A stretch of 64,000 nucleotides of DNA from assembly GCF_055900595.2 (NCBI RefSeq), contig NZ_CM148325.1. One strand, written 5' to 3'. Within the stretch, counting starts at the first letter, position 1. Each line of letters begins with the position of its first letter. The translations under genes were made by a program, and so were the position numbers. Under the pieces are notes generated by a model. That model searched no databases. It saw only the letters and a list, made by a program, of their open reading frames with translations, and was not told the DNA's origin. Below, piece by piece: positions 32,274 through 38,633 of the stretch.

Positions 32274-32834
32274 AAACTCAAACATGTCGGAATGATTGTC
32301 GTTTCTGTGTTGGCGATGTCTTCGGCTGCGGTTAACGCAGCCGAAGGTGATGAGTCAGTTGCGACCACCGTAAATGGCGGTGTTATTCATTTTAAAGGTG
32401 AAGTGGTAAATGCCGCTTGTGCGATTGACTCAGAATCAATGAACCAAACGGTTGAGCTGGGTCAGGTCCGTTCTTCTCGCCTGGCTAAAGCGGGTGACCT
32501 CAGTAGCGCTGTAGGCTTCAATATCAAGCTGAATGATTGTGATACCAATGTTTCCAGTAATGCGGCTGTTGCATTCCTTGGGACTACTGTCACCAGTAAT
32601 GACGATACGTTGGCGCTTCAGAGTTCAGCAGCAGGCTCTGCCCAGAATGTCGGTATCCAAATTTTGGACCGTACGGGGGAGGTATTAATACTGGATGGGG
32701 CAACTTTTAGCGCTAAAACTGACTTGATTGATGGCACGAATATACTGCCATTCCAGGCTCGTTATATTGCCCTCGGGCAGTCAGTGGCCGGTACTGCAAA
32801 TGCAGATGCGACCTTCAAAGTCCAATACCTATAA
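32274..32834 (+). CDS. Fimbrial major subunit (type 1/FimA-like pilin) of a chaperone-usher operon (F9/Fml-like)
   Basis: ORF from 32214; I start at [23 protein letters not shown] (signal peptide); conserved pilin Cys pair and C-terminal donor-strand region. Confidence 0.85.
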
Positions 32835-33194
32835 TTCAGTATTCAGGTGGCTATACGTCATCTGAAATTAAAACAGGGTGTGTGTGGCATGGCTACTCAC
32901 ACCCGAAAAAATTCATCAATATTTATCTCATTATTACTAAGGAATGACTTATATTTTGGAACGATATGAAAAAATCATAGAGTATCTAAACGATTAATAA
33001 ACAAGACAGTTAAATTTACTGTGATTTTAAAAATCACTTTGAAGACAATTTTTATTTCAATAGAGAACCAAATTTTATTACCAGCGCATTAAGTCTGGAA
33101 ACCCGGCCATCCGCCATAGCATTAGCAATATTTACCATTTTCTGATGTGACGGTTTCCCCCGCTTAGCCTATCAACACATGGAGAACACATCAG

Positions 33195-33905
33195 ATGCAG
33201 ACGACTCGTACGCCCTACTCTGTTTCTTTTATGGCGACAGTATTACTTTCATTGATCTTTCTTTGCCATAGTACCATTGCCAATGCAGCGGTAGCTCTAG
33301 GTGCAACTCGTGTAATCTTTCCAGCAAATCAGAAACAGGTTCTATTGCCTGTCACGAATAATGATCCTGCCAGTGTCTATCTTATTCAGTCATGGATAGA
33401 AAATGCGGGTGACCAAAAAGATACCCAGTTTGTCATTACCCCACCGCTTTTTTCGATGCAAGGCAAAAAAGAGAATACGCTGCGGATTATCAACGCCACT
33501 AATCATCAGTTACCGAGCGACCGGGAAAGCCTGTTTTGGGTAAATGTCAAAGCTATTCCTGCTATGGAAAAAGATCAGAAAAATGCAAATACATTACAGC
33601 TGGCAATTATTAGCCGCATAAAAATGTTCTATCGCCCAACGAATTTGGCAATGGCACCTGACCAAGCTCCGGAAATGCTTCGTTTCCGCCGCAGTGGTAG
33701 CAAACTGACACTTATTAATCCGACCCCCTACTTCATTACCGTAACGAATATGAAAGCAGGAAATAGCGATCTCCCAAACACCATGGTGCCTCCAAAAGGT
33801 GAGATTTCTGTGGATTTCCCTCACGGTGCATCCGGGGATATCAGCTTTCAGACGATCAATGATTACGGTGCATTAACACCGCGTATTAAGGCAACCATGC
33901 AGTAA
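33195..33905 (+). CDS. Periplasmic fimbrial chaperone (PapD/FimC family)
   Basis: 236-aa ORF with signal peptide and chaperone motifs (GATRVIFP..., Y.I.SW.E). Confidence 0.9.
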   Translation: MQTTRTPYSVSFMATVLLSLIFLCHSTIANAAVALGATRVIFPANQKQVLLPVTNNDPASVYLIQSWIENAGDQKDTQFVITPPLFSMQGKKENTLRIINATNHQLPSDRESLFWVNVKAIPAMEKDQKNANTLQLAIISRIKMFYRPTNLAMAPDQAPEMLRFRRSGSKLTLINPTPYFITVTNMKAGNSDLPNTMVPPKGEISVDFPHGASGDISFQTINDYGALTPRIKATMQ

Positions 33906-33948
33906 CAACTGACCTAATTAATAAGCATAAACTCAATCGGAACTAATA

Positions 33949-37144: not shown

Positions 37145-37156
37145 TCAGAGTCAGAT

Positions 37157-37660
37157 ATGAATAGAACTTTCCAAAGACTTCTGTTGGCTACGCTCTGTGC
37201 GCTATTTTCAGCAACGCTTCAGGCCGCTGATGTCACTATCACTGTTAATGGTCGGGTAGTTGCTAAACCCTGCACTATTCAAACCAAAGAGGCTAGCGTT
37301 AATCTCGGGGATCTTTATACACGCAATCTGCAACAACCTGGTTCTGCATCTGGCTGGCACAATATTACTTTATCATTAACCGATTGTCCGATTGAAACAA
37401 GTGCAGTGACGGCAATCGTAACAGGTTCAACTGACAATACGGGTTATTACAAAAATGAAGGTAGTGCAGAAAATATTCAAATAGAGCTGAGGGATGATCA
37501 GGAGGCGACGTTAAAAAGTGGCGATAGCAAAACGGTTATTGTTGATGAGATCACACGTAATGCACAGTTTCCACTTAAGGCAAGAGCTATCACGGTGAAT
37601 GGAAACGCAAGCCAGGGAACGATCGAGGCGCTAATCAATGTGATCTATACCTGGCAATAA
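37157..37660 (+). CDS. ydeR: Fimbrial minor subunit
   Basis: 167-aa ORF with signal peptide (MNRTFQRLLLATLCALFSATLQA). Confidence 0.8.
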   Translation: MNRTFQRLLLATLCALFSATLQAADVTITVNGRVVAKPCTIQTKEASVNLGDLYTRNLQQPGSASGWHNITLSLTDCPIETSAVTAIVTGSTDNTGYYKNEGSAENIQIELRDDQEATLKSGDSKTVIVDEITRNAQFPLKARAITVNGNASQGTIEALINVIYTWQ

Positions 37661-37718
37661 CATCGATTCGATTTTATAAGCCTCTTTTTTAAATCAATTT
37701 TTAACCTAAGGATTTATC

Positions 37719-38633
37719 ATGGGAAAAAAAATTAGTATAAATGTCCTGTTCAGTATTTATTTTCTTTTGATGGCAGGTAAAGTCTTCGCCTTCAGTTGTA
37801 ATGTTGATGGTGGGTCAAGTATTGGCGCAGGTACAACTTCTGTGTATGTTAATCTCGATCCTGTCATTCAACCAGGTCAGAATCTGGTTGTAGATTTGTC
37901 TCAGCATATAAGTTGCTGGAATGATTACGGCGGCTGGTACGACACAGATCATATTAACTTAGTACAAGGCTCAGCTTTCGCAGGCTCCCTACAGTCATAT
38001 AAAGGATCGCTGTACTGGAATAATGTGACCTACCCCTTTCCGTTGACGACAAATACCAACGTGCTGGATATTGGTGATAAGACACCGATGCCCTTACCGT
38101 TAAAACTCTATATTACCCCTGTCGGGGCGGCCGGTGGCGTTGTCATAAACGCGGGAGAAGTTATTGCTCGCATTCATATGTATAAAATTGCAACGTTAGG
38201 AAGTGGAAATCCGCGTAACTTTACATGGAATATTATTTCAAATAACAGTGTTGTTATGCCAACGGGCGGCTGTACCGTTGATAGTCGTAATGTCACAGTG
38301 AGTCTCCCGGACTTTCCTGGAAGCGCAGAAATACCCCTGGGCGTATATTGCTCAAGTGAGCAAAAGCTCTCATTTTATCTTTCGGGCGCTACCACTGACA
38401 GTGCCCGACAAGTGTTTGCTAATACAGCACCTGACGCAACAAAAGCATCAGGAGTCGGTGTCTCCCTGATGCGTAATGGAAAAATACTGGCTACGGGAGA
38501 AAATGTCTCCCTGGGAACTGTAAATAAAAGCAAAGTACCCCTGGGCTTAAGTGCAACTTATGGACAGACCGGAAGCAAGGTCGCAGCTGGAGCAGTACAG
38601 TCAGTCATTGGCGTTACATTTATCTATGAATAA
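37719..38633 (+). CDS. ydeQ: Fimbrial tip adhesin (two-domain FimH-like; F9/FmlH-like)
   Basis: 304-aa ORF, last gene of the operon; size and position match an N-terminal lectin plus C-terminal pilin domain adhesin. Confidence 0.8.

Follow-up and report, generated by a model that had tools for sequence, protein, structure and literature searches.

Which pilus is encoded by an uninterrupted chaperone-usher operon beside ydeP, and how does it come to differ by about a tenth of its DNA from the E. coli sensu stricto form? These questions are raised by a 64,000-nucleotide stretch of DNA (the window; NCBI RefSeq assembly GCF_055900595.2, contig NZ_CM148325.1), which belongs to cryptic clade I of Escherichia as judged by its sequence matches. 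The F9 (Fml) pilus is an adhesin of urinary tract infection and gut colonisation and a drug target, and human pathogens of the STEC/ETEC type are emerging from cryptic clade I. We conclude, with a probability of roughly nine in ten, that the operon is the chromosomal F9 pilus operon (Fml; fmlA-chaperone-usher-ydeS-ydeR-ydeQ/fmlH) in its cryptic clade I form. The F9/Fml operon is a known, well-studied system, and the one unusual point about the clade I allele is its excess synonymous divergence: in DNA it has moved about twice as far from the sensu stricto form as the adjacent genes have, although the sugar-binding tip has hardly changed.

The original prediction had placed an intact six-gene operon of this kind, with a full-length usher, at 32274-38633. 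Open reading frames and Pfam roles agree on six uninterrupted genes of a chaperone-usher operon on the + strand. The right end stands, and the left end moves to the ATG of the major subunit at 32271 (MKLKHVG...), a start taken from the PGAP annotation of a matching genome and mapped to window coordinates. The features are as follows:

31983..32012, + strand: putative f9 promoter, with -35 TAGACG (31983-31988), an 18-bp spacer and -10 CATAAT (32007-32012)
32020..32270, + strand: long, AT-rich 5' leader of ~251 nt, with GGAG as ribosome-binding site at its end, ahead of the ATG
32271..32834, + strand: fmlA, F9 major pilin subunit, 187 aa including the signal peptide (Pfam Fimbrial, E 5.7e-31)
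32842..32904, + strand: two stem-loops after the fmlA stop (32842-32866 and 32876-32904)
33195..33905, + strand: periplasmic chaperone, 236 aa (Pfam PapD_N 9.7e-40, PapD_C 2.9e-11)
33949..36600, + strand: full-length outer-membrane usher, 883 aa (PapC_N, Usher, PapC_C)
36614..37144, + strand: ydeS, FimF-like adaptor minor subunit, 176 aa (Pfam Fimbrial)
37157..37660, + strand: ydeR, FimG-like minor subunit, 167 aa (NCBIfam FimG model, 250 bits, cut-off 220)
37719..38633, + strand: ydeQ, the FmlH tip adhesin, 304 aa, with a 24-aa signal peptide, a lectin domain (mature residues 1-160) and a pilin domain

By Pfam, the operon has the parts that define a chaperone-usher pilus: a PapD-like chaperone, a three-domain full-length usher and pilin-fold subunits. 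The usher was rightly predicted to be complete, as it covers profile positions 1-549 of 549 of the Usher model (E 8e-198) and aligns with the O157 Sakai usher across all 883 residues (93.4% amino acid identity, dN/dS 0.09); its NCBIfam equivalog score of 985.7 falls slightly under the cut-off of 995. The adhesin combines a FimH-type lectin domain with a Fimbrial domain, the latter found on the three pilins as well, and all Pfam domains exceed their gathering scores except the adhesin pilin domain (22.3 vs 25.6 bits). No stop codon or frameshift interrupts any of the six genes, and all are alignable end to end with their Sakai orthologs, among them fmlA (98.9% amino acid identity, dS 0.33, dN/dS 0.03), the chaperone gene (92.8%, dS 0.51, dN/dS 0.07) and ydeS (dN/dS 0.10). 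The product of fmlA is named FimA here by PGAP/NCBIfam, and the PGAP gene label is fimA.

The assignment to F9/Fml had been predicted and is upheld by locus, gene order and sequence. The gene order matches the annotated fmlA-fimC-fimD-ydeS-ydeR-ydeQ operon of Sakai, and is the same in NRG857C. Collinear full-length alignment to Sakai gives 89-93% nucleotide identity per gene (~90% for the operon) and 92-99% amino acid identity. The E. coli F9/Fml system, designated c1931-c1936 in CFT073, fmlA...fmlH in UTI89 and ECs2113-ECs2107 in Sakai, and left as a ydeTSRQ remnant in K-12, agrees with the present operon in its six genes, their order, their site and the mapped promoter architecture. The truncation in K-12, which the original prediction had stated, is indeed present: MG1655 has a 1227-bp 3' usher pseudogene (ydeT) with ydeS, ydeR and ydeQ, and its usher sequence is alignable only from nucleotide 1426 of the usher gene.

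The site was compared through the annotated neighbours in the matching genome, Sakai, NRG857C and K-12. It is bounded on the left by a variable region downstream of hipBA and on the right by ydeP-safA-ydeO. In the window, the neighbours are those that had been predicted: an LRR/ankyrin insert on the left, with an LRR protein gene at 26951-28477 (- strand) and an ankyrin protein gene at 29170-31143, and ydeP/safA/ydeO on the right. The insert is lineage-specific, spans 6.7 kb and abuts the f9 promoter, ~130 bp upstream of the transcription start site. A clustering of adhesion and acid-resistance genes had also been proposed; the adjacency is real, but its special meaning is not borne out, as the synteny is conserved in every E. 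coli. On this comparison the adjacency reads as mere conserved synteny, with no sign of a functional link.

The closest paralogous operon is that of type 1 fimbriae (fimAICDFGH), which has the same Pfam domains and shares the architecture of a FimA-like rod, FimF/FimG-like adaptors and a two-domain FimH-like adhesin. Automatic naming would make the present operon a type 1, mannose-binding Fim operon: the NCBIfam equivalog models for FimA, FimF (234 bits, cut-off 200, for YdeS) and FimG exceed their cut-offs, Pfam FimH_man-bind matches with E 1.3e-77, and PGAP calls fmlA fimA. We give this reading practically no chance. The true fim operon is only ~68% identical in DNA, sits at another locus and contains fimI, a gene absent here, and the present operon occupies the ydeQRST site beside ydeP. 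The adhesin scores 359 bits to FmlH and at most 273 bits to FimH entries, and it has the wide pocket by which FmlH binds galactosides, not the mannose pocket of type 1 fimbriae (PMC5866590). Membership in type 1 fimbriae thus fails on nucleotide identity, on the missing fimI and on an adhesin nearer FmlH than FimH, and the names FimA/FimF/FimG and "FimH mannose binding" are misleading for an F9 operon.

An F9-like operon of Citrobacter sp. JGM124 (locus L005) is syntenic and has six genes. Its major subunit (76%), chaperone (71-72%) and usher (69-70%) are moderately close in amino acid sequence, whereas identity falls to just 53-57% for the minor subunits and adhesin; near pocket loop 3 the adhesin has another sequence, and hence its specificity is probably not that of F9. 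This operon is useful solely as an outgroup.

Most E. coli have an intact F9 operon, and intactness is not special. Of 5,426 complete E. coli genomes, approximately 66% have at least 80% of the operon, and roughly one in three has it in disrupted form; in a published survey, f9 was intact in 60% of strains and disrupted in all those of phylogroup A (PMC3966885). The allele in the window is of a rarer class. Its F9 region is 100% identical, and its flanks 99.9%, to those of E200086 and 100117, which are typed Cryptic I, ST485, OND:H45 (PMC13064198). These matches identify the source lineage as Escherichia cryptic clade I (ST485, OND:H45). The allele is common to 2013C-4282 and EC42405, which are also clade I genomes (PMC10100065). 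Only 18 complete genomes have an F9 region at least 99% identical, nearly all other matching records lie at 80-95%, and no record lies between 95% and 99%. For the 5' half of the operon, 18 genomes reach at least 95% and the remainder at most 95%. The best matches to the ydeP-ydeM flank are those same 18 genomes carrying the clade I F9 allele, which form one cluster. The original prediction overlooked the status of the operon as a divergent cryptic clade I allele. We found nothing specific in the literature on F9 in the cryptic clades; the present sequence shows that clade I has a complete F9 system, and the value of the result otherwise lies mainly in correct annotation. Because the allele split is clean (~90% vs at least 99%, with a gap between), F9 could serve as a typing marker to tell clade I and E. 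coli sensu stricto apart.

The operon in the window differs from every sensu stricto F9 allele by ~9-10% in DNA and 1-8% in protein, with amino acid identities of 93% for the usher, 93% for the chaperone, 92% for YdeS, 93% for YdeR (where the differences lie mostly within the signal peptide), 97% for FmlH and 99% for FmlA. The operon is ~90% identical in DNA to E. coli sensu stricto, while neighbouring genes are 95.8-98.7% identical. In a comparison with two sensu stricto references over one 47-kb neighbourhood with window-mapped coordinates, dS between clade I and sensu stricto was 0.20-0.51 in the F9 genes and 0.02-0.19 in 16 neighbouring genes; the length-weighted F9 value, ~0.37, is 2-3.5 times that of adjacent genes. 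Between two phylogroups of E. coli sensu stricto, F9 dS is 0.06-0.12, equal to that of the flanks. Codon usage was rejected as the source of the high dS because the low-GC3 neighbours ydeM, ydeO and ydeN are not elevated; within sensu stricto, moreover, F9 dS equals flank dS. A generally divergent strain is part of the cause, as the strain belongs to clade I, yet F9 at ~90% still stands out: identity is 98.2% with CFT073/Nissle at 46-53 kb and ~95.6% with sensu stricto genomes over ydeP-ydeM.

All six F9 genes are under strong purifying selection (dN/dS 0.03-0.16), and the excess divergence does not look like functional change. It may reflect an older coalescence of the locus, through a local recombination barrier or an ancient or introgressed allele. 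It is possible, though less likely than not, that clade I and sensu stricto are set apart by an "island of divergence" at F9, with a coalescence deeper than that of the surrounding genome (from pre-split alleles, an unsampled Escherichia donor or exchange blocked by the insert) and a lectin domain frozen by selection. If this is true, F9 would be a lineage marker and would document long-term conservation of one glycan specificity. A related proposal, that the clade I operon entered from a more distant Escherichia lineage, or represents an old allele held in common with such a lineage, and was not inherited vertically at the clade I/E. coli split, is possible although doubtful. In its favour are the raised dS, an excess that is significant against diversity within sensu stricto (HKA-style table, F9 382/101 vs flanks 207/117, P = 2.5e-6) and the lack of elevation in low-GC3 ydeM, ydeO and ydeN, by which codon usage gives no explanation; the left edge of the divergent block also coincides with the lineage-specific insert. 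Against it, the right-hand boundary of the block is not sharp, ydeP-ydeN being intermediate, and a donor was not found, with just two allele classes among the 5,426 genomes. The published survey likewise restricts f9 to E. coli and Shigella (PMC3966885).

Usher searches bear on the same proposal. A scan of one genome per species found no F9 usher in other Escherichia, although four of the six search peptides are common to both alleles; no locus from E. albertii, E. fergusonii, E. marmotae or E. ruysiae came up, a weak negative since the E. coli representative also gave no match. The scan returned Citrobacter at 69%, making its operon the nearest outgroup, Klebsiella/Kluyvera at ~60% and two contaminant contigs with the ordinary E. 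coli allele. In a large protein database, no intermediate usher cluster was seen, where clustering at 90% merges both alleles. When usher changes are polarised with the Citrobacter outgroup, 22 derived amino acid changes fall in clade I and 5 in sensu stricto, and some functional drift of the clade I usher is possible.

The sugar-binding tip of the pilus has changed very little. The FmlH lectin domain is identical to crystallised UPEC FmlH (PDB 6AOW) at 159 of 160 residues. The sole change, K120N, lies outside the binding loops; together with the clade-I-specific LRR/ankyrin insert beside the promoter, it sets the window operon apart from sensu stricto F9. The residues listed for the galactoside pocket of FmlH are F1, Y46, D53, K132, N140 and R142 (PMC5866590), and all six are present. 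Relative to Sakai, the lectin domain has 33 synonymous differences and 1 non-synonymous difference (dN/dS 0.007). Because the pocket is identical to the target of the galactoside inhibitors, clade I should in principle be open to these inhibitors and to FmlH vaccines.

The promoter was located by consensus scan and direct reading of the sequence. In CFT073, 5'-RACE mapped an f9 promoter with -35 TAGTCG, an 18-bp spacer, -10 CATAAT and transcription beginning at a G that precedes the ATG by 251 nt (PMC3966885). The window has the same -10, spacer length and start position; transcription here probably begins with the G at 32019, 252 nt ahead of the ATG at 32271. The -35 is one base off, TAGACG in place of the TAGTCG or TAGTCA of sensu stricto F9. 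The -10 and start region are invariant in an alignment of the clade I, Sakai and NRG857C alleles, and the promoter is predicted to be active in the clade I strain. For the leader region, H-NS binding and motifs were reported in CFT073 (PMC3966885).

By analogy with the family, transcription would begin ~251 nt upstream of fmlA from a promoter whose UPEC counterpart is kept silent by H-NS at 37 C and works near 20 C. Sec would export the pilus subunits, the periplasmic chaperone would cap them, and the 883-aa usher would assemble the FmlH tip adhesin, then YdeR (FimG-like), YdeS (FimF-like) and the FmlA rod. The lectin domain is predicted to bind terminal beta-galactosides (Gal-beta1-3-GalNAc / Gal-beta1-3-GlcNAc). 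Because no part is interrupted and purifying selection acts on every gene, the clade I operon most likely works. An intact operon need not be expressed, given the silencing by H-NS in UPEC, where F9 is repressed under standard conditions and barely expressed at 37 C (PMC3966885). That repression, the disrupted operons of roughly one E. coli genome in three and an IS66 insertion in 1 of the 18 clade I genomes (H44) would fit a silent relic, structurally whole but never expressed and heading for decay as in K-12. We regard a relic as very improbable. The low dN/dS values of the six genes and the lectin domain persist across a deep split (dS ~0.4), and therefore selection for function is needed; the reading frames are open, the promoter is conserved, and the FmlH, FmlA and YdeR proteins of a goat clade I strain are identical to those in the window.

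The 360-bp spacer between fmlA and the chaperone gene contains the two stem-loops. An Rfam scan of 25-42 kb returned no known RNA family. The fold of 32830-32900, a segment that stops short of the 3' arm of the second stem, has an energy of -20.2 kcal/mol (z = -3.1). Read by eye, the second hairpin (GGGTGTG...CACACCC) is kept in all four aligned alleles, bar one stem-adjacent base. As in other chaperone-usher operons, the stem-loops may act in transcript stability or attenuation and so give an excess of the major subunit.

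An ORF scan shows six uninterrupted plus-strand ORFs between 32.2 and 38.6 kb of the window, and their Pfam domains bear out the original prediction of six intact fimbrial genes including a full-length usher. The predicted extent of the operon also stands, except that the major subunit starts not at 32274 but at an ATG one codon upstream. The features of the operon and its left flank are:

25220-31887: 6.7-kb insert between hipA and the f9 promoter, without counterpart in E. coli O157:H7 Sakai
26951-28477, minus strand: LRR protein, in the insert
29170-31143, plus strand: ankyrin-repeat protein, in the insert
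31983-32012, plus strand: predicted f9 promoter, matching that of CFT073, with -35 TAGACG and a G at 32019
start ATG 32271, plus strand: major subunit (Pfam Fimbrial, pilin)
plus strand: PapD-type chaperone (PapD_N and PapD_C)
plus strand: full-length usher, 883 aa (PapC_N; Usher, profile positions 1-549 of 549; PapC_C)
plus strand: two further pilins by Pfam (ydeS, ydeR)
plus strand: two-domain adhesin (Pfam FimH-type lectin domain and pilin domain)

The 7-kb operon region finds its matches on E. coli chromosomes. The collinear genes of Sakai are annotated fmlA, fimC, fimD, ydeS, ydeR and ydeQ, followed by ydeP, safA and ydeO, and the B2 strain NRG 857C has an equal arrangement. The truncation predicted for K-12 is correct: all that MG1655 keeps is ydeT, an usher pseudogene of 1227 bp covering the 3' part, with ydeS, ydeR and ydeQ behind it, and alignment of the window usher to K-12 begins only at usher nucleotide 1426. 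Among PDB entries, the adhesin best matches FmlH of the F9 pilus (6AOW plus ten related entries): 159 of the 160 residues of the lectin domain agree, and scores for FimH entries are far lower. Identity with type 1 fimbriae is rejected because the adhesin is FmlH-like and the fim operon shares only ~68% DNA identity and lies at a different genome location. With the Sakai synteny, this upholds the F9/Fml assignment, despite the automatic labels 'FimA', 'FimF', 'FimG' and 'FimH mannose binding'. The F9 paralogs score above the cut-offs of the curated NCBIfam equivalog models FimA, FimF and FimG, and Pfam names the adhesin lectin domain 'FimH, mannose binding'; RefSeq gene names are therefore inconsistent (fimA/fimF/fimG versus ydeS/ydeR).

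The operon is known, widespread and already annotated, and the exact window proteins are present in RefSeq on hundreds of contigs. In 3,599 of 5,426 complete genomes a single place spans 80% or more of the 7-kb query, and 3,527 of the 5,426 carry 80% or more of the operon's 5' half, the half missing from K-12. These counts agree with the published survey, in which f9 was intact in 25 of 42 genomes and always disrupted in phylogroup A (PMC3966885). Intact F9 is thus the majority state in E. coli and no distinguishing feature. Records classed as plasmids account for seven of the 5,389 places that match the 32000-39000 query.

What the original prediction overlooked is that the window carries the F9 allele of cryptic clade I, a lineage sister to E. 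coli sensu stricto with >95% ANI (PMC10100065). At 99% identity or above, the operon is matched by just 18 complete genomes; almost all others lie at 80-95%, and none falls between 95% and 99%. The same 18 genomes are the top matches to the ydeP-ydeM flank (39000-46000; 97.8-99.9%), where all other E. coli reach at most 95.6%. The exact-match group comprises the GEMS isolates E200086, 100117, 100248, E400634, E500002 and E600003, of which E200086 and 100117 are assigned to phylogenetic group 'Cryptic I'/'Cryptic', ST485, OND:H45 (PMC13064198). Among the remaining carriers, 2013C-4282 and EC42405 have complete genomes that Okuno et al. 2023 treat as clade I (PMC10100065). A Nebraska goat isolate has the identical allele class together with the LRR/ankyrin insert.

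Divergence of the clade I allele is about double that of the genes around it while its glycan-binding domain is essentially frozen, a mildly interesting addition to what is known of F9. DNA identity to Sakai is 89-93% for each F9 gene and 95.8-98.7% for flanking genes; dS (Nei-Gojobori) is 0.20-0.51 in the operon (usher 0.35, chaperone 0.51, ydeQ 0.44) and 0.02-0.19 in sixteen neighbours from lsrD to gadC. In an HKA-style table of synonymous codon differences between lineages and within sensu stricto, the counts are 382/101 for F9 and 207/117 for the flanks (Fisher P = 2.5e-6). Codon usage is rejected as the cause, because low-GC3 neighbours are not raised and F9 dS between Sakai and NRG857C, which belong to two sensu stricto phylogroups, is 0.06-0.12, equal to flank dS. 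On the left, the divergent block begins (~31,888) at the junction of the lineage-specific insert; on the right, dS falls gradually across ydeP-ydeN (0.13-0.19) to 0.05-0.07 from ydeM onward. The excess may reflect an ancient or introgressed F9 allele, or it may reflect a local barrier to recombination. The complete-genome E. coli set holds no third F9 allele class, and a scan of species-representative genomes did not detect F9 in any other Escherichia species.

All six F9 genes have dN/dS of 0.03-0.16 between clade I and Sakai; over so deep a split, these sequence comparisons argue that the operon has most likely been maintained as functional. The extreme case is the FmlH lectin domain, with 33 synonymous changes and one non-synonymous change relative to Sakai (dN/dS 0.007). 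Its sole change from FmlH, K120N, falls in none of the three binding loops (residues 10-15, 44-53 and 132-142), and the glycan-binding check finds every galactose/aglycone contact defined from the FmlH crystal structures (F1, D53, K132, N140, Y46, R142; PMC5866590) in the window adhesin. Many amino acid differences in FmlH and YdeR are located in signal peptides.

As nearest outgroup, Citrobacter sp. JGM124 has a syntenic F9-like operon of six genes (locus L005, 4191-10756), with 53-76% protein identity (usher 69-70%, adhesin 53-54%) and an adhesin that differs from FmlH around pocket loop 3. The presence of this operon outside Escherichia qualifies the published claim that f9 is unique to E. 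coli/Shigella. An usher labelled E. coli (P0031) is 70% identical. When fixed differences are polarised with Citrobacter, 33 derived changes fall on the clade I side and 14 on the sensu stricto side, most of them in the usher (22 versus 5). The clade I usher scores 985.7 against its NCBIfam equivalog, just below the cut-off of 995, which fits this surplus.

In CFT073 the experimentally mapped promoter consists of -35 TAGTCG and -10 CATAAT separated by 18 bp; transcription starts at a G 251 nt ahead of the ATG, and H-NS motif positions are reported at -111 and -103 (PMC3966885). The -10 and start region is invariant across aligned alleles. Since the insert junction is ~130 bp upstream of the start, the coordinates place the core promoter and both H-NS positions inside the conserved block. 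Just downstream of fmlA are two stem-loops, the second kept across alleles; by analogy with chaperone-usher operons elsewhere, they would favour excess major-subunit transcript. As in F9 and type 1 pili, the subunits would be exported by Sec (PMC3966885, PMC5866590), capped by the periplasmic chaperone and assembled by the usher into the FmlH tip, YdeR, YdeS and FmlA rod. FmlH would be expected to bind galactosides, and expression to occur at low temperature and be repressed by H-NS (PMC3966885, PMC5866590).

The f9 5' flank is known to be variable, with assorted insertions (PMC3966885), and the hipA-f9 site is a replacement hotspot. In the window, the insert also holds remnants annotated as IS481 transposase, helix-turn-helix genes and alpha/beta hydrolase. 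At the equivalent site, NRG857C has another island, of 6.5 kb, with a response regulator, a mandelonitrile lyase, hydrolases and LysR. The LRR/ankyrin version is common to the goat clade I strain R32_14_1F; in the 12 kb left of the operon in that strain, neither an autotransporter nor hipBA is seen, and an AAA ATPase together with two genes labelled 'ABC-three component system' (locus L015, 193-4478) makes up a candidate defence system upstream of the insert.

On the right, ydeQ adjoins ydeP-safA-ydeO in every genome examined. The predicted clustering of adhesion and acid-resistance genes thus holds as adjacency, but as an arrangement conserved in all these genomes, and the data give no support to a functional link. 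Further right, yddA-pqqL (46000-53000) has 98.2% identity to CFT073 and Nissle (1.8% divergence), with other clade I genomes hardly nearer to it, a pattern that suggests mosaic ancestry, with gene flow linking clade I to E. coli sensu stricto right of ydeM. In contrast to all its neighbours, safA (41509-41706) has 3-4 amino acid changes in 66 codons and almost no synonymous change (dN/dS ~0.86 versus Sakai), in a gene too short for significance. The 348-bp ydeQ-ydeP spacer contains a hairpin at 38869-38892 with a perfect 10-bp stem (ATGAGAGTAG-CCCC-CTACTCTCAT; z = -3.3), which resembles a terminator for the minus strand alone, where no gene reads, because the flanking A-run is on the plus strand.
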